Shown: positions 1,763-60,675 of the stretch, in pieces
Layout of the letters: each line of letters begins with the position of its first letter
Numbering within the stretch: the first letter of the stretch is position 1
From: Candidatus Uhrbacteria bacterium CG10_big_fil_rev_8_21_14_0_10_48_16
GTDB taxonomy: Bacteria > Patescibacteriota > Patescibacteriia > UBA9934 > GWF2-40-263
Direction of reading: 5' to 3'
Length of the DNA: 60,675 nt
Assembly: GCA_002793515.1 (NCBI GenBank)
Contig: PFEU01000008.1
Coordinates: 73,952 to 134,626 of the forward strand
Notes under the pieces: model-generated
Databases searched by the model: none
What the model was told of the DNA's origin: nothing
Seen by the model: only the letters and a program-made list of their open reading frames with translations
Translations under genes and position numbers: made by a program

Positions 1763-1860
1763 AGTTTAAAAAGAGGAGAAATAAGAAGCGTCTGCAAGGC
1801 TACCACAAAAATAAACACCAGGCAAGAGTCCCGCCTGGTGTTTGATCTACAAAAAAGAAC

Positions 1861-3366
1861 TTAGTCGAAGATTGTATAGAACCAAGATGTTGTATCTGGT
1901 GCCGTATTACAATTGTAATCCGCGGTGGTAAGAGCCGATGCAACAGAATCGGTAATAGCCCCAAAACTGAATGACCCGAGATAACACGCTTTTTCTGCCT
2001 CCGTACGATTCCACGCACACATATCATTGAGTGTTCCACCTCCACCGCAAAACGATCCTAATGTCAGGTCTCCAAGATTATCGTACAGGACTTTTCCTGC
2101 TCCAGAATCTGTTCCTGGAAGACCGGAATTTTTTCCAAGATCAATATTCTCAAGAGTTGTGTTTCCACTCGAAGAAAAGACTGGAAGCGTCTCATAGTCT
2201 TCACATGTTTTAACCTGTGAACAATTGACGACAACACGCGCACACGCAGCCGTTCCCGTTGGATCTCCTCCTCCATCAGGATCTCGTGTAAGAAAACAGG
2301 CTTCATATTTTTGCACAACCGTCTCCTCCCATTGAATCGTCTTTCCTGCATTTGGACCAACCGTTGGTGTGAAACTTGCCGTCTTCGGTGAAATATCCGT
2401 TTCATACCGAGGCAAACTATTAAATGCCGAACAGATGGAAGCCGTTGGAGGAAGGACCGTATTATCAGACGTTAATTCCTCACAAGCCATACACGTCGGC
2501 GTCTCTCCCGGAATACACATCTCTCTGTCATTCGCACAAAACGCAAAGTTACAAACAACTCCATCTACGGTTGCATTTCCTTCTGGATCTTTTGTCACGG
2601 TTCCCACCGTTCCACATGCCTTGGGACCAGAATACTCAATGGCATATCCCTCTTTGATCAAGTCATCGCAAGAAGCATTATCAACAAGACTCACGGTTTT
2701 AATCATGGGAAAATCCGGAACGGACATCTTCAAAAGCTGTGGATTCACGGTAAATAGAATGAGGTAGGTTGAGAGAAGCAACACCAGCCCCATGACGGCA
2801 TTTTTAATCGTCGTCTTTGCCTTCCCGACCTGTTCAGAGCTCAACCCTCCCAATGACCAACGAATTCCAGCAACCATTAACATCACGATTGCGATCGTGG
2901 TAGCAGCTCCTAACATCCACTGATAGGCTTTCGCAACATACTCCCCTAAGTCCCCCGCCACAGTCAGTCCGCCTATAGATGTTGAGAGCGTAAGTTTCGC
3001 AGCCTTCGATGGATCAGGAAAACAATAGTGATACCCATTCGGACACTCAGGAGGCTGATACCCATCGAGAACCCCATTATGTTCTGCACACTGATCTGCC
3101 GTGAAACAATTCAAACTTCGGGATGGATGTTGATTCGCCGTACAAGCAAAAGCCGCAATATTTTGACCGCTCGCCTTACACGCAGTATCACATGCCGTAC
3201 GTTCAATTTTGGTGGTTGCGTCTGGATACTGTTTCGCTCCCGTGGGACTTGTGCAATAACACGAACAACTATCTGTTGCCGCTTGCACAGATGGAACGGC
3301 TCCAAAAACCCCGATGATCATCAAGGTCATCAACATGGCACCAAAAAATCGCTGAGTCTTTCTCAT
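1861..3366 (-). CDS. Cys-rich secreted/membrane protein with CPR-type pilin-like (TrbC/VirB2-like) hairpin domain
   Basis: Signal peptide; two hydrophobic helices (MLGAATTIAIVMLMVAGIRW...AKTTIKNAVMGLVLLLSTYLILFTVNPQLL) typical of CPR pilin-like proteins; many Cys in the flanking domains. Confidence 0.65.
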   Translation of the reverse strand: MRKTQRFFGAMLMTLMIIGVFGAVPSVQAATDSCSCYCTSPTGAKQYPDATTKIERTACDTACKASGQNIAAFACTANQHPSRSLNCFTADQCAEHNGVLDGYQPPECPNGYHYCFPDPSKAAKLTLSTSIGGLTVAGDLGEYVAKAYQWMLGAATTIAIVMLMVAGIRWSLGGLSSEQVGKAKTTIKNAVMGLVLLLSTYLILFTVNPQLLKMSVPDFPMIKTVSLVDNASCDDLIKEGYAIEYSGPKACGTVGTVTKDPEGNATVDGVVCNFAFCANDREMCIPGETPTCMACEELTSDNTVLPPTASICSAFNSLPRYETDISPKTASFTPTVGPNAGKTIQWEETVVQKYEACFLTRDPDGGGDPTGTAACARVVVNCSQVKTCEDYETLPVFSSSGNTTLENIDLGKNSGLPGTDSGAGKVLYDNLGDLTLGSFCGGGGTLNDMCAWNRTEAEKACYLGSFSFGAITDSVASALTTADYNCNTAPDTTSWFYTIFD

Positions 3367-9568: not shown

Positions 9569-10915
9569 ATGCGACATGTCCTCGACTGCATCGGTCTCGA
9601 TGGCGAGACCACTCAGGTTCGCCGAGAAGACCTGTTCCCTCGCGTGAACCGCATCGCCAAGCTGATCGAGGTCCTCAAGACCCAGGTCGTCGGCCGCGAC
9701 ACGCTCATCGACCGCATCCTCTTCGCCCTGTGCACCCGCGAGCACGTCCTCACCTGGGGACCGCCTGGAACGGGCAAGAGTCTGATCATGCGCAAGATCG
9801 TCCGTGCGAGCCGGGGCATGCGATCCTTCTCCATCGGCCTGAGCGCCGAGACGACGGAGAGCAAGCTCTTCGGCGATCCTGACGGCGCGCACTTCCGCGA
9901 AACGGGCGAGATCCGCCACCTGGTGGAGGGCTCCATCCTGGACGCCCACCTCGTGCGCCTGGGCGAGTGCCTCAACGGCGGCTCCCAGCTCCTGGAATCA
10001 CTCAACGACGTTCTGGAGGAGCGCGAGTTCCATCGCGGGAAGCAGATCGTGCGTGCGCCGCTCATGACCACCCTCGCCGACACCAACGTCGACCCGATGG
10101 AAGCCGTGGGAGCGAACCGGGATCTGGAGCCCTTCATCGACCGCTTCGTCTTCCTGATGCCCGTCGGCTACGTGGAGGGAACCGAACAGCGCCTGCGTAT
10201 GTTGCGCAAGTACAAGTCCCGCGCCGTGCATGCACCCCTGCCCGAACTGACCCTGGAAGACCTCGTCACGGTCTCAGGTGTCATCATCAAATCGGACCTG
10301 GCCGAGGACACCGTCATCGAGCAGGCGTACGAAGAGTTGGTGCGTGTCTTCTGCGACGCCACCGGCGAGACCATCGGTGACCGCACCTGGTTGCGCATGT
10401 CCCAGCTCATCGAGCTCAGCGCACTCTTGAACGGTCGCACCCACGCCACGTTGGACGACCTCCGCCTCACCGGTGCTGGCCTCATCCGCCGGCCTGGCGA
10501 GGAAGAAGCGTTCGAAAACGCCCTGGCCCAAGTGGTCGATGGCAAGTGGAAGCGCGCCGAGCACCAGGAGCGCATCCAGGCAGAAGAAGAGATCCTCGCG
10601 CGCATTGAGGCTTCGCTCCCGAGCGAAGATGAGATCGCCGAACGTTCCGTCAACGCGTTCCCGCAACTCCTGCGCCGTCTCAAAGCGGCCACGTCCCGGC
10701 TCAACCAGCTCACCATGAGCTCGCAGACCAACCGCGATCGGCTCCAGATGCTGCTCGCCGACATCGAGGTGCGTCAGACCATGCTCTTCGGAGTGGTCCA
10801 GAAGGCCACGGACCCGGAGGACCTGGCCGAGGCGGACGAACTGATCGCTGCCGGCACCTCGCCCGACGATCCCACCGAGCCCAAGAGCGGTGAGGATCCC
10901 GACGAGGCATCCTGA
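9569..10915 (+). CDS. MoxR/RavA-like AAA+ ATPase with C-terminal helical extension; GC-rich
   Basis: Walker A WGPPGTGKS, LFGDP, Arg-finger region PFIDRF; Walker B position reads VRLGEC; SD AAAGGAG upstream of ATG 9569. Confidence 0.85.
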   Translation: MRHVLDCIGLDGETTQVRREDLFPRVNRIAKLIEVLKTQVVGRDTLIDRILFALCTREHVLTWGPPGTGKSLIMRKIVRASRGMRSFSIGLSAETTESKLFGDPDGAHFRETGEIRHLVEGSILDAHLVRLGECLNGGSQLLESLNDVLEEREFHRGKQIVRAPLMTTLADTNVDPMEAVGANRDLEPFIDRFVFLMPVGYVEGTEQRLRMLRKYKSRAVHAPLPELTLEDLVTVSGVIIKSDLAEDTVIEQAYEELVRVFCDATGETIGDRTWLRMSQLIELSALLNGRTHATLDDLRLTGAGLIRRPGEEEAFENALAQVVDGKWKRAEHQERIQAEEEILARIEASLPSEDEIAERSVNAFPQLLRRLKAATSRLNQLTMSSQTNRDRLQMLLADIEVRQTMLFGVVQKATDPEDLAEADELIAAGTSPDDPTEPKSGEDPDEAS

Positions 10916-12147
10916 TGGATCCCATCACTCTCGCTATCATCGCGACACTCGCAACGAGCGGAACGATCGGGACCGCAGCCGGAGCCGTCGCCCTCTACCG
11001 GGCGATTGAACGTGCTGGTTTCCCCAAGACGACACCGTCGGGTAAGCCCATCATGTACGAGCGTCTCACTCCCGAGGAGATCGCCATCCAGATGGCTCGC
11101 CGCGTGGTCATCACCCACACGCTCATCACCATCGGACACGATCGCACCGGCCAGAAGGCTGTAGGCGAACGTATCATCGGCCACCGCAAGGTGGGCGAAC
11201 GCAAGGTGGGCGAGAAGGTCGTTGGTTACAATGTCGTCAGCCACCGCAAGGTGGGTGAACGACAGATCGGTGAGGAACAAGTCGGCGTACGGACAACCGG
11301 TCACCGATGGAAGGAATCACCAATCCCCGCTGACCGTGTGCGCCTTCGCGCCATCCGTGGACTCGAAGAGTTCCACCGTCGCCTTCCGGCCGAGCTCCTG
11401 CTTCCACCAGACATGCAGGAACTCCGCATCCTGACGGGTGAGGCGCAAGTCCTCGCCTTCGAGCGTCGCCTGCCAATCATCGAACCCATCATGGTTCCGA
11501 TCATGGAGGATGTGACCGAGCCTGTCACCGAACCGGTGGTGGAACCCGTTATGGAAGACGTGATGGAAGCTGTCACGGAAACCATCTGGGAACCCGTCTA
11601 CGAACCAGTGACACGCAAGAAGACACACGGCGTCTACATGTTGATCGACTACTCCCAATCCGCGCGGGTCGGCTTGATCGGCTCCATAGGCCGATACTCC
11701 AGACCTGGCCACCCCTGGCGTGGGAAACTCAGCGACCAAGCGGCGGTCGAAACACTCAAACGCTGCCAGCAGGAGGGGATCCCCTTCTACTGCCGTGCAT
11801 TCCACAACGAAGCCCTGAAGCTCTTCACTTGGAGGCCTGGCGACCCTCCGGGGAACGTCATGGACTATCTCAACGGATGCAGACACGGCGGCACAAACAT
11901 TGCCGTAGCCATCGAGACAGCCATCGGCGACCTCACTGGAGAGGGACTCGACTCCGCTGACCTCATGTTGCACACTGACGGAGAAGACAACCTCGACGAA
12001 TCACTCCGTCGACGACTCGACCAAGCCAACGTGCGTCTGCACGTCCAGCTCTATGGTGTAGAGAACGAGACGCTTCGGCGACTCGCCCACACCTGGAGCC
12101 TGTGCCCCACCAATCGCTACCTCTCGCAGGTAGTCACGAACTCCTGA
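10915..12147 (+). CDS. ViaA/CoxE-like von Willebrand A domain protein with N-terminal hydrophobic helix and internal repeats
   Basis: MIDAS motifs IDYSQS, GGTNIAVAI, HTDGED; ViaA-like RRLPAELLL motif; start overlaps the ATPase stop. Confidence 0.8.
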   Translation: MDPITLAIIATLATSGTIGTAAGAVALYRAIERAGFPKTTPSGKPIMYERLTPEEIAIQMARRVVITHTLITIGHDRTGQKAVGERIIGHRKVGERKVGEKVVGYNVVSHRKVGERQIGEEQVGVRTTGHRWKESPIPADRVRLRAIRGLEEFHRRLPAELLLPPDMQELRILTGEAQVLAFERRLPIIEPIMVPIMEDVTEPVTEPVVEPVMEDVMEAVTETIWEPVYEPVTRKKTHGVYMLIDYSQSARVGLIGSIGRYSRPGHPWRGKLSDQAAVETLKRCQQEGIPFYCRAFHNEALKLFTWRPGDPPGNVMDYLNGCRHGGTNIAVAIETAIGDLTGEGLDSADLMLHTDGEDNLDESLRRRLDQANVRLHVQLYGVENETLRRLAHTWSLCPTNRYLSQVVTNS

Positions 12148-12179
12148 ATGCACAAATAGGAGAACCCACCTCCTACCTC

Positions 12180-12252
12180 CCCACCACACACGCTGGTGGG
12201 ATTTTTATTTTCATCAAAAAGAAAAGCACCCGGACTCCGTGGAGTTGGGTGC
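12180..12252. terminator. Back-to-back terminators between convergent accessory operons
   Basis: CCCACCA/TGGTGGG plus T tract (+ strand); GCACCC...GGGTGC preceded by an A tract (- strand). Confidence 0.7.
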
Positions 12253-12262
12253 GCGTGTGTGA

Positions 12263-13447
12263 TCACTCGTAGTGTCTGCTTCGACTTGACGTCCACTCTT
12301 CGTGACGATTGTTGATGATCCAGAAGCTCAGGCCGAGGTTGATCAAAAGCGTCAGGAAGTAGGAGAGGACGACCGCCCAGCCGGGTGGCTCCACCGTAAG
12401 GTAAGAGAAGTCAGCGAAGGGCTTACGAACGAAGCGCTTGCGCACTTCTGGGACCATGTAGTCCACGAGATCAACGAGGTCGAGCGTCCCCTGGTTCAGG
12501 GCGTACTCACGGACATCGATCTTGAGACGATCCTGTTCGGTCCACGAGATGACGTGGGTCCAGGTAACCTTGCCAGATCGGTCGGTGCCAAGGGCGAGGA
12601 TGAACTCGTTCTTGTTCCCACCCTTCCAGTAGCTCTCCTGAGCAAGTCCAGTCTCGAGGGTTGATTCGGGTCCGAAGACCAGTACGAACATCTTGACTTG
12701 CTTGTTCCTTCCAATCTTGGCGTTCCAGAACCGTAGGAGCGTATCCGCTTCCCTCGTTTCTGACCCACCATTCCCCAGGATGGCTGGTTGATCCCAGCTT
12801 CCGATCCCTGGGTACTCATAGAGACCCCAGACCTTCGGATTCACCTCTTCGAAGTTGAAGACGGAAGTGGAGGCCTGAACGCGGTTCTCGTAGGTGTGTC
12901 TTGTTGTGACCTCGACGAAGCTCGCGTCGTCCTTCGTGTTCCACGTAGCGACGTACTTGTCACCGTCGATAGAGTGGTAATCACGGTGCATGTCCACGAA
13001 GACACGACTATGCCACTTGCTGACAAGACCTTCGAACTGGCCTGAGCTGATGGACTGCGATTCTCCGTTGGAGTCGTGGAGAACCCAACGTGGTGGATGG
13101 TCGTCTACATCGTAGAGATGCTCCGTGCCGCAGGCGACACGTTCGGTGCAGGAGTAGGTGCTCCCATCTGAGTTGGTACAGGTAGACGGTTGGTCACAGT
13201 ACTTCGTGTGCGTACAAGGAACCTCCTCGTCCCAGCGCTCGAAGTACTCGGCATGCGTTGCCCATCCGCCCCAGAACTCGGTATCCGCCGTCTGCACCAT
13301 CTCGGTCCCATACTTGAACCCAGCGATGCACACGATCGAAACCGCGAACGGAACGATGAACTCCCAGGCGACCGTCTTGTGACGGAACCAGGCATACAGA
13401 ACGATTGCCACAACGATCGGGATCGCCATGGCTCCCCAGATGATCAT
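12263..13447 (-). CDS. Hypothetical membrane protein (2 N-terminal TM, Cys-rich insert, alpha/beta TPM-like region, C-terminal TM); GC-rich
   Basis: 394-aa ORF with SD AGGAG and GC-rich codons; TPM-like call is by eye only. Confidence 0.75.
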   Translation of the reverse strand: MIIWGAMAIPIVVAIVLYAWFRHKTVAWEFIVPFAVSIVCIAGFKYGTEMVQTADTEFWGGWATHAEYFERWDEEVPCTHTKYCDQPSTCTNSDGSTYSCTERVACGTEHLYDVDDHPPRWVLHDSNGESQSISSGQFEGLVSKWHSRVFVDMHRDYHSIDGDKYVATWNTKDDASFVEVTTRHTYENRVQASTSVFNFEEVNPKVWGLYEYPGIGSWDQPAILGNGGSETREADTLLRFWNAKIGRNKQVKMFVLVFGPESTLETGLAQESYWKGGNKNEFILALGTDRSGKVTWTHVISWTEQDRLKIDVREYALNQGTLDLVDLVDYMVPEVRKRFVRKPFADFSYLTVEPPGWAVVLSYFLTLLINLGLSFWIINNRHEEWTSSRSRHYE

Positions 13448-13482
13448 GACGATCTCCTACTGTGGTGGGGGGGGTAGAAGTT

Positions 13483-14034
13483 CTAGTTCTTGCCGTTGCT
13501 GAACAGGTCAACGTCGTTCTCCTGACCGGACGAGAAGGCCTCGTCGGTCTTCGCACTCGTCACGAGCTGGATCTTGATCTCGGGTCGACCGCCGACGAAG
13601 ATGGAGCTGGGAAGCGTCTCGCGGAGGTTGTCGTGCTGTGCCTTGATGTCGATCAGCTTCTTCTGCTCACGCGCGAACTTGGTCCGCTCAGCTTCGATGG
13701 AGCGCATCAGGTCCTGGTAGAGCGCAGTGTCGAACTCCGGATTGTGTTCGGTGATCCAGCTCATGAGGGCACCACCGCGGTCATTGCCGTAGCGACCCTC
13801 CATCAGCTCGGGGTAGATCTCCTTGAAGTCCTTCGCGTACTGGCTGCTGACGCCGGCCTTCTGCTGGATGATCTTCCAGGTGGCATCGAACACCACCTCC
13901 AAGTTCTCTTGCTGAGCCTCGGCCAGATTGCGCGTACGCACCTCAGCATTAGTGTAGTTGACGTACATCCCGATCGTCATCATGGCGATGACAGCCAGGC
14001 TCAGGAGGCCGACGAGAAGTCCCTTGTTCTGCAT
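13483..14034 (-). CDS. LemA-like single-TM helical protein; GC-rich
   Basis: N-terminal TM then amphipathic helices ending TLPSSIFVG, reminiscent of the LemA C-terminal FP-x-N-IVA segment. Confidence 0.65.
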   Translation of the reverse strand: MQNKGLLVGLLSLAVIAMMTIGMYVNYTNAEVRTRNLAEAQQENLEVVFDATWKIIQQKAGVSSQYAKDFKEIYPELMEGRYGNDRGGALMSWITEHNPEFDTALYQDLMRSIEAERTKFAREQKKLIDIKAQHDNLRETLPSSIFVGGRPEIKIQLVTSAKTDEAFSSGQENDVDLFSNGKN

Positions 14035-14215: not shown

Positions 14216-14650
14216 GTCTCAGGATGGTCGGATGGCTACGTGCGCTTTGCGTGCGAGGAAAGTCCGAACACCCGTTTTATCGCAAGATAAGACGATAAAG
14301 AGAGTCGCTAACGGCGACCAAGGATACGTTTGAGGGTTCGCGGAATTGGAGAAATTCATTCCATGACTCCTGATTCAAACTTTAGGGAAAGTGCCACAGA
14401 GACAATACTAGCCTCGTGCAAACGGGGTGAAAGGTGAAAAGTGATGCTGAGGTTACTCGATCAGTCGGTTGAGTCAGCCACACATCTCGCTCCATGGCGA
14501 CATGGATGCGTGGTAAACCCTCTCTGGTGAAAGAGCAAATTTGGTAGCTCGATGGAGCCCTTCAGCAATGTTGGGACTAGATAGATTGCCATCTCCCTTT
14601 GCGAGTTCGTAGAGGTAGACAAAATTCGGCTTACAGACCAGCCCTGGGAC
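14216..14650 (+). ncRNA. rnpB: RNase P RNA
   Basis: GAGGAAAGTCC, AGTGCCACAGA, GGTAAACCC and ACAAAATTCGGCTTA conserved blocks; P1 helix GTCTCAGG/CCTGGGAC. Confidence 0.96.
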
Positions 14651-48848: not shown

Positions 48849-50219
48849 CTAGTTCGTCGCCTGAGCGGTCGCCACGTCGTGACGACGAGCGTAGTCGGCC
48901 TGTACGGCCTTATGAGCCTCGTAGATGGTGGGCCAGGTGTTCTTCTCGACTTGCGCACGAAACGCCGGGTCGAAGAGGACTCCATGGATCCACTCGTACT
49001 TCACGAGGTAGAGCCTCGTCTCGGTCGGAAGGGTCTTGCAGGACTCGTCCCGCCAAGAGTCGCCACACGCGGTGATCGCGCGCTTGACCGTCGCGATGTT
49101 GGCGTTGTAGCCAGCCGCGAAGACCAGCTGACGCTCCCAGGTATTGGCGAGGTAGAACTCCCGCTGGGAGTCCTCCCTGAACGTCCACCACTCGGCGTCC
49201 GTGTGCGCGATCATGGTCTTGATCGCGTTGTGGTGATCGACGCGACCCCACACGTCGTCCTTGGGAAGGTCGGCGCGGGGGTACTGCTCGCGGATCGCCT
49301 TGTAGGGCGTGCCCACGATCTGGCCGATGCCACGCGCGTCCGCCCAGCTCTTGGTGTAGGAGAAGCTCTTCCACCGGTTGAGCCCGAGCGTGACGAGGGC
49401 GCGATCGAGCATCTGCAAACGCTCGAGGTCCGCACCCTTCGCAAACCAGGTGTCCGACCACATCTGCTCGGTGAGGATGAGCGTAATGATGTGGTCGGGA
49501 GTGCCGAAGTCCGTGACGAGACGTCCCTCGATGAATTGACTGCGCACATCCTTGGCGCGCATTTCGTAGTACGCCGCGAGAACCGCGTCCCGCAAGTACA
49601 TCAGCCCTGCCTCTCGGAAGGCCGGTGTATCCAGACGCGTCGAGTAGGGCACGTAGACCGCGCCGTCGACGCCATCTGGTCCGTCACCGTGCACAGCGGT
49701 GCGCACCGCAACGGCCGTCCAACCCGGGGGCGAGGAGATGATGAACGGCGGGTTGACCCCACCGTCACACGCTCCGTCGCGCTCGCAGGTGACGCTGAAC
49801 CCGGAGGGGCTCGTGGACTCACCCCCGTAGACGTCGACGACCTGGAGCTTGCCTGTCTCGTTGACGGCAGCAACCAGGTAGTCACCGATACACCGCTTCC
49901 AGCCGAGCTGGAGCGCGTGGCTGGGGACGCACTGAGCCTGGTTCAGGCGCTTGCTCGTGAGGAGCTCCTTCCCCTCGGCGACCGCATCGACCAGGTTCTT
50001 GGGGACATCCAGGAGGCGTGCGCTCCCGGGAGGAACGTAGGCCACGTAGCCATCGACCTCGATCTGACGAGGCGGGGGCGGGAGCGGAATGCTCGGGATG
50101 GAGTGAGAAACCACGGGCTCCTCATCCAACCCCATCAGCTTGTGAACCACCTTCTGCCCCAGCATCACGATCGCGAGGATCGCCAGTACGAGGAGAAGAG
50201 GCTTGAAGTAACGACGCAT
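48849..50219 (-). CDS. Membrane-anchored protein with a C-terminal divergent lytic transglycosylase (SLT-like) domain; GC-rich
   Basis: LILTEQ (catalytic Glu position), DARGIGQI, AAGYNA, LPTETRLYLVK. Confidence 0.7.
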   Translation of the reverse strand: MRRYFKPLLLVLAILAIVMLGQKVVHKLMGLDEEPVVSHSIPSIPLPPPPRQIEVDGYVAYVPPGSARLLDVPKNLVDAVAEGKELLTSKRLNQAQCVPSHALQLGWKRCIGDYLVAAVNETGKLQVVDVYGGESTSPSGFSVTCERDGACDGGVNPPFIISSPPGWTAVAVRTAVHGDGPDGVDGAVYVPYSTRLDTPAFREAGLMYLRDAVLAAYYEMRAKDVRSQFIEGRLVTDFGTPDHIITLILTEQMWSDTWFAKGADLERLQMLDRALVTLGLNRWKSFSYTKSWADARGIGQIVGTPYKAIREQYPRADLPKDDVWGRVDHHNAIKTMIAHTDAEWWTFREDSQREFYLANTWERQLVFAAGYNANIATVKRAITACGDSWRDESCKTLPTETRLYLVKYEWIHGVLFDPAFRAQVEKNTWPTIYEAHKAVQADYARRHDVATAQATN

Positions 50220-50345
50220 GAGGAACCCTCCATGTCTTTAGGCACCATGCCTGCAGAACGAACAGAAATTACATGAAACAGGGGTTTTTGTCAATGGTTT
50301 AGAGACGAATACGTTCTGTTTTCCCCATAAAAGCCCCTTGTCGCA

Positions 50346-50374
50346 TTGACGATAACTGGTTCAATTGATATTAT
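50346..50374 (+). promoter_or_regulatory. Sigma70 promoter for the tRNA-Ala locus
   Basis: TTGACG-N17-TATTAT. Confidence 0.7.
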
Positions 50375-50398
50375 TTCGCCGTTACAAAAAACTATCGT

Positions 50399-50426
50399 TT
50401 ATGATGGGCCTGTAGCTCAGCTGGTT
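50399..50426 (+). repeat. Duplicated leader and 5' fragment of tRNA-Ala
   Basis: 28-bp exact direct repeat of 50459-50486. Confidence 0.95.
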
Positions 50427-50428
50427 TG

Positions 50429-50570
50429 CCCCGTATTACAACAAAATAAAATGACGTCTTATGATGGGCCTGTAGCTCAGCTGGTTAGAGCACCTGCTTT
50501 GCAAGCAGGGGGTCAAGGGTTCGAATCCCTTCAGGTCCACCACGAGACGTTTTTTTGTTGTAATACGGGG
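50429..50570. repeat. Inverted repeat pair enclosing tRNA-Ala
   Basis: CCCCGTATTACAACAAAA (50429-50446) / TTTTGTTGTAATACGGGG (50553-50570), plus ACGTCT/AGACGT. Confidence 0.92.
50466..50542 (+). tRNA. tRNA-Ala(TGC), CCA encoded
   Basis: Acceptor GGGCCTG/CAGGTCC with G3-U70, D arm GCTC/GAGC, anticodon arm CCTGC-TTTGCAA-GCAGG, T arm AAGGG-TTCGAAT-CCCTT. Confidence 0.98.
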
Positions 50571-50614
50571 TTGCAAGCAGGGGGTCAAGGGTTCGAATCC
50601 CTTCAGGTCCACCA
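50571..50614 (+). repeat. Duplicated 3' half of tRNA-Ala (anticodon loop to CCA)
   Basis: 44-bp exact direct repeat of 50499-50542. Confidence 0.95.
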
Positions 50615-50641
50615 TAAACGGTGGTTTTTTGATAGAATAGA

Positions 50642-51949
50642 ATGACTATGAAACGATTCTGCCTCATCCTCCTCTCGCTCACGCTTCTTGTCCCTTCCAC
50701 ATCCGTTTTTGCCTATCATCAAGAATCCATTTCTCTTCAGTCTCTGGATGGGACCATCGTCACACCTCTTACGAGAGTGAACGATGTTTCTGGAGCAAGT
50801 TTTGTTGTGGCAGACCTCGGGAACGACGGGACCGAAGAGTTTATTGTGGGAAATGGAATGGGACTAGAGCCTCGTGTCCGAGTTCTCAGAAAGGATGGCA
50901 GTGAAATCGGAAGTTTCCTTGCCTATGACGCAAGTCTTGGAGTAGGAATCAATGTGATTGCCTGCGATCTTACAGGAGATGGGTACAATGAAATCGTTGT
51001 CGCGCCTCAACGCGGGGGCGGGCCACACATCCGTGTCTTTAATCGCTATGGAGAAGCGATTGATGCTGGTGGATTTTTTGCCTATGCAGAATCGATGCGC
51101 GAAGGAGTAAATCTTGCGTGTGGAGACCTTACAGATGATGCACGTGCAGAACTGGTCACCCTTCCCGCAGCCGGTGGTGGACCACATGTCCGAGTATGGA
51201 ATTGGAATACAGACGAAGAACTAACAGAAAATTTTTTCGCCTATCACATGAGTGATCGGTCTGGTCTTGTAGGTTCCATCGAGAATAAAAAACTTTTTCT
51301 TTCACAACAACACACGTCATCACCAACGATCAAAGAATTTGTTATCCACAGTTCTGTCACAATGACCGATGAAGAAACTATTTCGATTGACGGACTCGGT
51401 GTGCAATCTCTCATCCTCTTCCAGGGAGAAATTTTGCTCACCACAAGTTCAAGTGACACGCTCTACAACGTTTCAAAAGATGCGACCCAACAACTCACCC
51501 TCCCCCACGCAACGCTTGCAACAGACGATGAGATGATCTGGATCACCTCTGGCCGAAAACTCTACGCTCCCGAAACAGAACCCAAACGCATTACGATCGA
51601 CCTCTCGGAACAGCGTCTATACGCCTACGAACATGGAATTCTTCGAAATGCATTTCTCATTTCAAGTGGCCTAAATAACGCGACTCCCTTAGGAAATCAC
51701 ACGGTTTTGGCAAAAATTCCTCTCGTGCATTATGCCTGGAACTATGGAACGGGTGATTCACGCAACTACGATCTCGGATGGATTCCTTACAATCTTCGTT
51801 TCTACCCACACATCTACATGCACTATGCTCCGTGGCATAATAACTTCGGTCACAAGATGTCCCACGGATGTGTGAATGTCGGGCTCACAAATATTCAATG
51901 GCTGTACGATTGGGCAGAAGAAGAAATTCCCGTGAGCGTCCAGGAATGA
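50642..51949 (+). CDS. Secreted FG-GAP/VCBS-repeat protein with C-terminal L,D-transpeptidase (YkuD) domain
   Basis: Repeats ADLGNDG / CDLTGDG / GDLTDDA with GGGPHIRVF; IDLSEQRLYAY, KMSHGCVN; start may be 50648. Confidence 0.9.
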   Translation: MTMKRFCLILLSLTLLVPSTSVFAYHQESISLQSLDGTIVTPLTRVNDVSGASFVVADLGNDGTEEFIVGNGMGLEPRVRVLRKDGSEIGSFLAYDASLGVGINVIACDLTGDGYNEIVVAPQRGGGPHIRVFNRYGEAIDAGGFFAYAESMREGVNLACGDLTDDARAELVTLPAAGGGPHVRVWNWNTDEELTENFFAYHMSDRSGLVGSIENKKLFLSQQHTSSPTIKEFVIHSSVTMTDEETISIDGLGVQSLILFQGEILLTTSSSDTLYNVSKDATQQLTLPHATLATDDEMIWITSGRKLYAPETEPKRITIDLSEQRLYAYEHGILRNAFLISSGLNNATPLGNHTVLAKIPLVHYAWNYGTGDSRNYDLGWIPYNLRFYPHIYMHYAPWHNNFGHKMSHGCVNVGLTNIQWLYDWAEEEIPVSVQE

Positions 51950-60021: not shown

Positions 60022-60133
60022 GTCCTGGCGCCCACCTACTCTCGCGCAATCGCACTACCATCGGCCCAAGGAAGCTTAACGGCCGTGTTCGGGATGGGAA
60101 CGGGTGTGGCCTTCCTGGAAGTGGCACCAAGAC
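60022..60133 (-). rRNA. rrf: 5S rRNA
   Basis: CACACCCGTTCCCATCCCGAACACGG..GTTAAG, GCCGATGGTAGT, GAGAGTAGG; enclosed by AAGAACCCTTTGTC/GACAAAGGGTTCTT. Confidence 0.97.
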
Positions 60134-60348
60134 AAAGGGTTCTTTAATTTTACTAAATAAGGGTAGCGGCAAGAATCAATTACTCGTTCACGTATTTCAC
60201 GTGATGAAAGTTTGATTCGGTTTTCAAAATGGAATGAGATGCGCCGCTCTGGAGCCATGAAAGATTTTGAGACGACCAAATGGTCGTTGAAAAATTTTCA
60301 TGGCGAAGAGCAAGCAGATCGTCCATTTTGGAAATCGAATGCATGAGT

Positions 60349-60675
<327 letters not shown>

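Follow-up and report, generated by a model that had tools for sequence, protein, structure and literature searches.

How does an intact tRNA gene come to lie inside a broken copy of itself, and how might it be maintained there? The question is raised by a stretch of DNA of 60,675 nucleotides, referred to throughout as the window (60 kb), from a groundwater bacterium of the candidate phyla radiation (CPR), Candidatus Uhrbacteria. Within it a complete tRNA-Ala(UGC) gene is enclosed between the 5′ and 3′ parts of a second, interrupted tRNA-Ala gene, an arrangement which is here called the nest. tRNA genes are classic landing sites of mobile DNA, and an incoming element can repair the damage that it causes. 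In this regard, the explanation which we favour, at slightly better than even confidence, is that the nest represents a self-compensating tRNA-Ala replacement cassette lodged in the broken resident gene. It would be the smallest form of this bargain seen so far, in that the payload is the repair itself, a whole tRNA together with a folding helix. As a feature the nest is, judged by the comparison of sequences set out below, real, recurrent and under selection at the level of RNA. Its recurrence in other lineages, the nature of its stalk as an RNA helix and the elements with GIY-YIG nuclease genes in related genomes all go beyond an earlier note on this DNA, which had been drawn up from the one stretch.

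The nest in the window

The cassette, 142 nt in length (50429-50570), separates G22 from U33 in the resident tRNA-Ala(UGC) gene, where the flanks of the insert read ..GGTTTG and TTGCAAG... Ten nucleotides of the resident gene, A23-U32 (AGCACCTGCT), are replaced. The earlier note had put this gap at 12 nt, a figure which alignment with relatives reduces to 10 nt, the TG at 50427-50428 corresponding to A21-G22 with an A to T change. Two direct repeats, each 100% identical, relate the outer to the inner copy: 28 nt at 50399-50426 and 50459-50486, made up of seven leader nucleotides (TTATGAT) and tRNA positions 1-20a, and 44 nt at 50499-50542 and 50571-50614, comprising tRNA positions 33-76 including the CCA. 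The extreme ends of the insert are formed by an inverted repeat, CCCCGTATTACAACAAAA at 50429-50446 having its exact complement at 50553-50570 (18/18); 0.04 such matches would be expected by chance, and two were reached in 0/100 shuffles. A second helix of 6 bp, adjoining the inner tRNA, can be read from the sequence (ACGTCT 50454-50459 with AGACGT 50545-50550), and the two helices together are termed the stalk.

At the nest, ARAGORN and Rfam call one tRNA only, the inner tRNA-Ala(UGC) at 50466-50542. The 266-nt stretch 50375-50640 is predicted to fold with -121.5 kcal/mol (z = -9.1, no shuffle being as stable), and its predicted minimum-energy fold is the nested structure, including an outer acceptor stem and T arm. 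The repeats, inverted repeats, outer stem, promoter-like site and inner tRNA which the earlier note had listed are all present (Table 1).

Table 1. Parts of the nest, with positions counted from the first nucleotide of the window
Feature	Position	Strand	Remarks
Promoter-like site of resident tRNA-Ala gene	50346..50374	+	TTGACG-17-TATTAT, TG extension, 10/12 matches
Outer (resident) leader	50385..50405	+	50385-50403 pairs with outer trailer 50613-50631, 19 bp, two G-U
TTATGAT, end of outer leader	50399-50405	+	7 nt recurring before inner tRNA
Outer 5′ fragment, broken resident tRNA-Ala positions 1-22	50406..50428	+	positions 1-20a as in inner tRNA; A21 to T at 50427
Stalk left arm	50429..50459	+	helix 1 strand 50429-50446 (CCCCGTATTACAACAAAA), internal loop, helix 2 strand ACGTCT 50454-50459
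Inner leader TTATGAT	50459..50465	+	copy of last 7 nt of outer leader
Inner intact tRNA-Ala(UGC), working gene	50466..50542	+	77 nt, G3-U70, encoded CCA; ARAGORN; Rfam tRNA 74.8 bits
Stalk right arm	50543..50570	+	helix 2 strand AGACGT 50545-50550, T7 run 50550-50556, helix 1 strand 50553-50570 (TTTTGTTGTAATACGGGG)
Outer 3′ half, broken resident tRNA-Ala positions 33-76	50571..50614	+	identical to inner copy
Resident trailer and terminator-like hairpin	50609..50631	+	CCACC-ATAAAC-GGTGG (50609-50624), then T6; 50613-50631 pairs with outer leader

Authenticity of the structure

With so much repeated tRNA sequence in so short a space, an artefact of assembly has to be weighed first, a chimera being the outcome against which the earlier note had itself cautioned. 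Three further contigs of the Joint Genome Institute (JGI), L001-L003, which encode the YkuD protein found downstream of the nest, bear on the matter. L001, an independent contig of 20 kb from a separate sample, is identical to the window over the entire structure. L002 and L003, from two further samples, begin inside the nest and reproduce its 3′ part, confirming the joint between the right inverted repeat and the 3′ half. That two of the four contigs end within the nest is what an artefact might lead one to expect, and it does indicate that the repeats trouble short-read assembly. The joints GGTTTG/CCCCG and CGGGG/TTGCAAG, however, are not obtainable by mis-joining two ordinary tRNA loci, and the architecture recurs in three other organisms, which come from other studies, with stalk sequences that differ yet compensate mutually. 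An artefact is accordingly given next to no weight. In practical terms, nests break short-read assemblies, and their fragments can confuse tRNA annotation.

The locus in related genomes

Homologues of the YkuD/FG-GAP protein come from organisms named Candidatus Uhrbacteria, and the neighbourhood is conserved, consisting of a PfkB kinase, a 2-hydroxyacid dehydrogenase, a 456-aa protein without Pfam match, tRNA-Ala and the YkuD transpeptidase. The locus was taken from ~45 related genomes, in ~30 of which tRNA-Ala(UGC) adjoins YkuD. Most of these ~30 have a single ordinary tRNA-Ala gene of 76 nt, termed native (GGGCCAATAGCTCAGTTGGTAGAGC..TCTGGGGTTCGA.TCCCCATTGGTCCACCA, with variants). In L008-L012, L015, L016, L211 and others a single tRNA-Ala lies between the same neighbour genes, and the leader and trailer of the native locus L016 are similar to those of the window. 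Four nests were found in all, that of the window and those of the distant relatives L212, L021 and L013.

All four nests share both joints. The left one falls after G22 (G22/C.C.G) and the right one, by alignment, before U33 (CGGGG/U33), such that CGGGG/TTGCAAGCA is the same in the window, L212, L021 and L013; the stalk measures 16-18 + 6-10 bp. L212 is a full nest, the outer halves of which are identical to the inner tRNA, with the leader CTCATGAT in both copies. L021 is also a full nest, in which outer and inner sequences differ. L013 comprises the 5′ fragment, the stalk and the inner tRNA, and of its 3′ half only TTGCAAGCA is left.

The two nests in which the copies differ are those that bear on the order of events. 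In L021 both the outer 5′ fragment (GGGCCAGTAGCTCAGTTGGTAG) and the outer 3′ half, with its T arm CTGGGG..CCCCA, belong to the native type, which is intact in L025 and L012, whereas the inner tRNA is of a 77-nt type beginning GGGCCTG.., with an extra D-loop base and the T arm CAAGGG..CCCTT. The outer 5′ fragment of L013 (GGGCCAATAGCTCACTTGGTAG, GGGCCAA..) is likewise of the native type, unlike its inner tRNA. It follows that the outer gene would be the broken resident and the inner gene the one that came in. The earlier proposal of a self-compensating insertion carrying a replacement tRNA is thereby supported, the more so as ordinary relatives have one intact gene at the same place.

The outer halves have, moreover, degenerated in three of the four nests, by A21T in the window, by G68T, which breaks pair 5:68, in L021, and by G15C and the loss of positions 42-76 in L013. 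Such changes fit relics. They also bear on a rather different explanation, in which the outer pieces are kept as part of a composite functional RNA and pair after excision to give a tRNA-like alanine acceptor, a G3-U70 minihelix of a topology like that of transfer-messenger RNA (tmRNA), serving as a decoy or regulator. Alanyl-tRNA synthetase (AlaRS) charges G3-U70 minihelices, the predicted fold does contain the outer acceptor stem and T arm, and three of the four nests retain complete outer halves, which in two cases match the inner tRNA exactly. Against these stand the loss of nearly the whole 3′ half in L013, the broken outer pair 5:68 in L021 and the A21T change in the window. As to tmRNA, ARAGORN finds none, the Rfam tmRNA model reaches 26.4 bits against a gathering score of 47 and covers the T arm and acceptor end only, and there is no tag ORF (open reading frame). 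The decoy suggested in the earlier note is disfavoured by the same degenerative changes, and a composite RNA of this kind appears very improbable indeed.

Several other observations were made at this locus. tRNA-Ala(UGC) lies beside YkuD on either strand in the ~30 Uhrbacteria genomes, being in the opposite orientation in ~12 (loci L015-L094); in L021 the entire nest, with its outer halves, is inverted relative to YkuD. Between tRNA-Ala and YkuD in L032 (1806-2220) a by-eye translation gives what looks like the N-terminus of a HicB-like antitoxin (MQCTAVYQKHGAWYLGWIEEIPGINTQGETMKEAKEN), which would be another small insertion-prone gene here. L045 (~1930-2350, minus strand) has another kind of 5′ duplication at tRNA-Ala, ~145 nt (a 130-nt leader and the first 12 nt of tRNA-Ala) being repeated upstream of the full tRNA-Ala with ~110 nt, including a short hairpin, between the two copies. 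L209 was tried as a ‘resolved’ nest and not used, since the contig begins in the 3′ part of a tRNA which may be the outer 3′ half of another nest.

The stalk as an RNA helix

Over the four nests the 26 pairs of the stalk are paired in 94% of cells, compared with 38-60% when the partner column is slid, and 7 of the 26 have changed on both sides (for example GTATTAC/GTAATAC, GTACCAC/GTGGTAC and GCACTAC/GTAGTGC). The observed covariation values were reached by 0/500 shuffles. There are four G-U or U-G cells, on the tRNA-sense strand only, and zero A-C cells. Since a constraint on the antisense strand or at the level of DNA would allow A-C, these wobbles point to a helix that is selected in the transcript.

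Folding in silico suggests what the helix may do. Within the native 249-nt precursor the inner acceptor stem forms with a pair probability of 0.997. With one arm or both shuffled the mean is no more than 0.005-0.11, and with the arms taken out it is 0.007; the cassette alone or the tRNA alone folds normally. The inner stem collapses without intact arms because the identical outer copies compete for its strands. On these predictions the stalk may be an insulator, which would close off the inner tRNA from its duplicates by keeping the inner acceptor strands from pairing with the outer copies.

The same helix is of consequence for an origin in integrase-type elements, which the earlier note had offered as an att-site relic. 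According to this account two elements, or one that was later deleted, duplicated the 5′ and 3′ parts of the gene, and the spacers are their remains. The 44-nt repeat, from anticodon loop to CCA, is indeed the classic footprint of tRNA integration, and 3′-part duplications stand beside inserted genes in the relatives L213 and L221. Spacers that are complementary to each other over 18 + 6 bp and covary are, however, unlike unrelated remnants, and two ordinary att duplications are further disfavoured by the same joints in four lineages. Moreover, 10 nt of the target are missing, while att recombination is conservative; the inner tRNA of L021 and L013 is not a hybrid of resident and element, both acceptor strands being of the incoming type; the six flanking ORFs that were searched with Pfam contain no integrase; and a large element between the same joints occurs in none of the relatives. 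An origin of this kind, already largely refuted by these points, is considered very unlikely.

Expression of the nest

Upstream of the outer 5′ fragment the window, L212 and L013 have a promoter-like site of the form TTGACG-17-TATNAT, extended by TG, which in the window is the sole promoter-like site within 50000-51000 (50346-50374). In L021 no promoter-like site meeting the scan criteria was found. Scans which included the window, L212 and L013 found no promoter-like site inside the cassette, and neither such a site nor an ORF was found in the cassette of the window (50429-50570). With one promoter-like site upstream, none inside and the resident terminator after the outer 3′ half, the simplest reading is that of a single precursor, as proposed in the earlier note, read from the resident promoter. 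The whole nest would in that case be transcribed as one RNA of ~250 nt, from which RNase P and 3′-end enzymes would free the inner tRNA.

Recurrence and independent gains

How often the nest has been acquired may be judged from a tree of the YkuD protein (neighbour joining, 100 bootstraps, a single protein). L013 falls inside a clade with four native lineages (bootstrap 100). The window is joined by L005 (99), which retains a native-type 3′ remnant, and L021 groups with L023, L024 and L031 (92), of which L023 and L031 are of the native type; a grouping of the window with L212 has a bootstrap of 0. As the native gene is not easily regenerated from a nest, this distribution requires, on a single-protein tree, at least four independent gains of the nest in Uhrbacteria lineages, each with these same two joints. 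That independent gains agree in their joints would point to copying from a nest-bearing donor and not to repeated illegitimate insertion, the route being, we infer, recombination through the flanking tRNA halves or beyond. The type of the inner tRNA was also considered as proof of horizontal transfer and set aside: it is unchanged among hosts with YkuD identities of 37-58%, but conservation of the native type is no less strong.

Both arms of the cassette resemble sequences of the resident gene, the left arm being like the stretch of leader that immediately follows the -10 box and the right arm like the trailer. The cassette may therefore have been, at first, a duplicate of an entire tRNA-Ala transcription unit without its promoter. 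This resemblance has a bearing on the most substantial of the alternatives, a local accident followed by ordinary recombination. The nest would, according to this alternative, have arisen once, through an error of replication or repair (a template switch or inverted duplication) at a tRNA-Ala locus, and would not be mobile; the stalk would have been kept against misfolding, and the presence of nests in several lineages would reflect ordinary homologous exchange of the region between related Uhrbacteria. A cassette that looks like a copy of an ordinary tRNA-Ala unit, with neither an ORF, nor a target-site duplication, nor a second copy anywhere in the window and 1.63 Mb of related-locus DNA, is in keeping with such an accident, as are a leader-trailer stem already present at many ordinary loci of the clade (L016, L017) and the sharing of even the leader heptamer between the inner and outer copies of the window and L212. 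It is less easily reconciled with identical joints in four lineages that are separated by native-type lineages at bootstraps of 92-100%, and a purely local duplication cannot give the inner tRNA of L021 and L013, which is a different allele from the broken resident. A local accident is on balance unlikely, albeit a serious competitor. It overlaps with a replacement cassette on recombination through the tRNA arms, and the two differ mainly on whether spread is actively promoted.

GIY-YIG elements in tRNA genes of related genomes

Small GIY-YIG nuclease genes are found inside tRNA genes of other Uhrbacteria (Pfam PF01541, E = 4e-16), encoding proteins of 87-95 aa that consist of the catalytic domain only. 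L038 (CALRBH010000015.1, Candidatus Uhrbacteria; 1790-2400, minus strand) has a larger nest which itself holds a nuclease gene. It comprises, in order, a promoter, positions 1-23 of tRNA-Ala as a 5′ fragment that is split by a double hairpin of 55 nt, a further 25 nt, a full tRNA-Ala, a terminator, a GIY-YIG ORF of 87-92 aa, another hairpin, positions 43-76 as an exact 3′ fragment and a last terminator. In L029 a GIY-YIG ORF lies directly 3′ of tRNA-Ala. On 16 contigs homologues also stand directly 3′ of tRNA-Arg(GCG), and beyond them comes the displaced 3′ portion of the tRNA; in L213 (1416-1975) and L221 (1415-2350), as in L214-L220, the ORF starts 8 nt after tRNA-Arg(GCG), and the region has RecG on one side and, on the other, a 173-aa ORF of unknown function that lies downstream of BacA. 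L221 has two such ORFs and two leftover fragments (positions 15-77 and 40-77), which argues for two successive insertions.

Closer to the window, its sister lineage L005 begins with IFDGSIRMNI and a stop, matching the C-terminus of the GIY-YIG proteins, after which come 16 nt left over from a native tRNA-Ala 3′ end and then the terminator of the resident gene. A GIY-YIG ORF within or beside the inserted DNA is probable at L005; a remnant is present in L027 too.

Hairpins of ~40 nt of the form CCCCGAC..GTCGGGG interrupt the leftover tRNA-Ala, tRNA-Arg and tRNA-His fragments of different genomes at positions 15/16, 43-48 and 65/66 (L005 41-105; L038 ~1830-1882 and 2325-2379; L213 1784-1927; L221 1808-2335; L046 2021 and 2227). 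L042 has two copies outside tRNA sequence, and no copy is present in the window. A link between the stalk ends CCCCG../..CGGGG and these hairpins was considered and not adopted, the two having only five bases in common and the hairpin being absent from the window. In L046 (1788-2290) tRNA-His(GUG) is followed by two tandem units of ~206 bp. At the end of either unit stand a CCCCGACG..CGTCGGGG hairpin and 14-19 nt copied from the tRNA-His 3′ end, and both units contain the T-arm region in an inverted copy.

A proposed replacement cassette and its possible spread

The sequence of events that would follow from a replacement cassette can now be put together. On insertion the cassette would destroy the only local tRNA-Ala(UGC) gene and supply a substitute for it, such that, once in place, it could be lost only by a precise event. 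It would pass between genomes by donor-templated recombination, in which the conserved tRNA halves serve as portable homology arms, and for this reason the joints would always be the same. The weakest step is the origin of the break at which repair starts, which may come from the small GIY-YIG nucleases in the tRNA genes of relatives; that these nucleases drive the spread of the cassette is possible, by analogy with such elements. The further proposal, that the nest belongs to a new class of selfish element without an ORF, a ‘tRNA homing cassette’ of the CPR that is made up solely of a replacement tRNA gene on its insulating stalk, spreads by means of the halves of its target tRNA, is mobilised in trans by GIY-YIG nucleases and is addictive to its host on account of the essential resident gene that it destroys, is a tentative one, and we are inclined to doubt it.

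A number of points weigh against a mobile cassette, and they are gathered here. The cassette encodes no enzyme, and Pfam searches of the six flanking ORFs found no integrase, transposase or recombinase domain. No stalk arms were found outside nests in the window or in the 1.63 Mb of related-locus DNA, all four nests are at one orthologous locus, and movement to other sites is not seen. A tblastn search of the 60-kb window with three of the Uhrbacteria GIY-YIG proteins gave no homologue (best E = 0.75), and the fragment boundaries of the GIY-YIG elements are at about position 40 or 10, not 22/33, and come without a stalk, so that their link to the ORF-less cassette is hypothetical. The gains are counted on a tree of one protein, by neighbour joining only, and tRNA identity alone is no proof of transfer, since distant hosts have both tRNA types in highly conserved form. 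In the window and L212, moreover, the outer halves equal the inner tRNA, down to the 7-8 leader nucleotides that differ between these lineages (TTATGAT compared with CTCATGAT). A simple model of a foreign cassette does not predict such identity, which hints at conversion of one copy by the other or at arms that came with the donor. What is said of the precursor, of how it is processed and of what the stalk does is, finally, deduced from sequence and thermodynamic folding only.

Taken as a whole, the interpretation in the earlier note survives in its first part, an origin by insertion, and gives way on the att origin, the decoy and the size of the gap. Should the cassette really spread, essential single-copy tRNA genes in the streamlined genomes of the CPR would be open to overwriting allele by allele, and conserved RNA genes could act as homology arms across species. 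Partial tRNA ‘pseudogenes’ around a good tRNA could then mark a replacement, and not the scar of a prophage.

Other features of the window

In many bacteria tRNA-Ala(UGC) sits in the 16S-23S spacer. In the window it is a separate transcription unit, 10 kb from the rRNA and on the other strand, the 5S rRNA and the 3′ end of the 23S rRNA being at the window edge (60023-60675, minus strand). The segment 48825-50276 has a locally high GC content of 0.58 and ORFs of >450 aa on both strands; the 456-aa product of the minus strand is without a Pfam match and is conserved in relatives at 423-482 aa. A further region of high GC content, at 10001-14000 (0.57-0.62 compared with ~0.47 elsewhere in the window), is found a short way upstream of the gene for RNase P RNA (14220-14650), in which 431 nt are matched to a model of 367 positions.

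Comparison with known systems

In the open-access literature no tRNA nested in its own split gene in bacteria was found, and no GIY-YIG genes inside CPR tRNA genes. Sequence collections were searched as well. A metagenome scan for the right joint RTRRTRCGGGGTTGCAAGCA gave five chance matches in unrelated sequence, the collection being without the JGI samples that contain nests and hence uninformative on frequency. Among viral contigs the joint pattern had 0 matches, and the 85 matches to the 5′ 26-mer of the inner tRNA were all of tRNA-Met or tRNA-Ile(CAU)-like genes, none of tRNA-Ala and none nested. The whole nest, compared by BLAST with phage and plasmid collections, gave only matches to the 77-nt tRNA, no record covering 80%. 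A generic pattern of a 5′ fragment followed by a full tRNA had 24 matches in viral contigs, in phage tRNA arrays of a different architecture. In five of the viral contigs (L190, L191, L193, L199 and L203) a fragment of acceptor strand and D arm (..TAGCTCAGTTGGAAAGC..) is followed by a hairpin and a full tRNA with the same 5′ end, and some of the full tRNAs in those arrays have long insertions in the anticodon region (ARAGORN 93-98 nt).

Two classes of RNA were tried and rejected. Removal of the insert as a tRNA intron would join 50406-50428 to 50571-50614, a product that lacks A23-U32 and with it the 3′ strand of the D stem and the 5′ strand of the anticodon stem; no intron family in Rfam was found in 50300-50700 at the gathering threshold or at E <= 1, and no group I ribozyme core. 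A tmRNA was discarded on the ARAGORN and Rfam results given above.

Integrative elements, namely prophages, integrative and conjugative elements (ICEs) and genomic islands, enter tRNA genes and restore them by way of attL and attR (Williams 2002 and Reiter 1989, cited in PMC9897764). The nest is like them in its tRNA-gene target, in an incoming tRNA sequence that compensates for the damage, in the partial copy left behind and in a repeat from the anticodon loop to the CCA. It is unlike them in that a whole tRNA is brought in, both the 5′ and the 3′ fragment of the resident remain and 10 nt are lost, and in an insert of 142 nt which encodes no integrase and has a covarying inverted repeat at its flanks. 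No recombinase is present, and two different repeats surround a full gene where an integrative element would have one conservative repeat.

Phage T4 SegB is a GIY-YIG homing endonuclease encoded in a tRNA cluster. Its target, in the DNA of a related genome, is a conserved tRNA motif; the repair that it triggers copies the nuclease gene together with neighbouring tRNA genes (PMC2330249). The Uhrbacteria GIY-YIG ORFs resemble it in being wedged between a full tRNA and a leftover fragment (L038, L213, L221), and differ in being of 87-95 aa with the catalytic domain only, the cutting of tRNA genes being putative. The nest itself is further removed, as the cassette is without a nuclease gene and homing by SegB does not result in a nested copy surrounded by a split target. 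In the archaeon Caldiarchaeum subterraneum a tRNA-Thr gene has been disrupted by a mobile element, a 1.8-kb insert encoding a recombinase (PMC3293823). As in the nest, a tRNA 5′ fragment stands upstream of a complete gene for the same tRNA with inserted DNA between the two; unlike the nest, the case is archaeal, involves introns and scattered fragments dealt with by archaeal splicing, and has neither a stalk nor a downstream 3′ half.

Miniature inverted-repeat transposable elements (MITEs) are, like the nest, short and without an ORF, and the perfect terminal inverted repeats that characterise them are present in the nest at 18 bp. The nest departs from them in the absence of a target-site duplication, in the 10-nt deletion, in its single copy and site in the window and the 1.63 Mb of related loci, in arms of the kind expected of an RNA helix and in its cargo gene.

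With regard to the stalk, the nearest likeness is to the leader-trailer helices of bacterial rRNA operons, which are cut by RNase III. In both, a helix between the 5′ and 3′ flanks closes a structured RNA within a longer precursor and is conserved by covariation, as is found for the nest on the transcribed strand. The helices of the operons, however, enclose rRNAs, whereas the stalk of the nest encloses a single tRNA, and the need for it would arise from competing duplicates. The nest provides in this respect a clean and testable case of an RNA helix selected against misfolding between repeats within one transcript.

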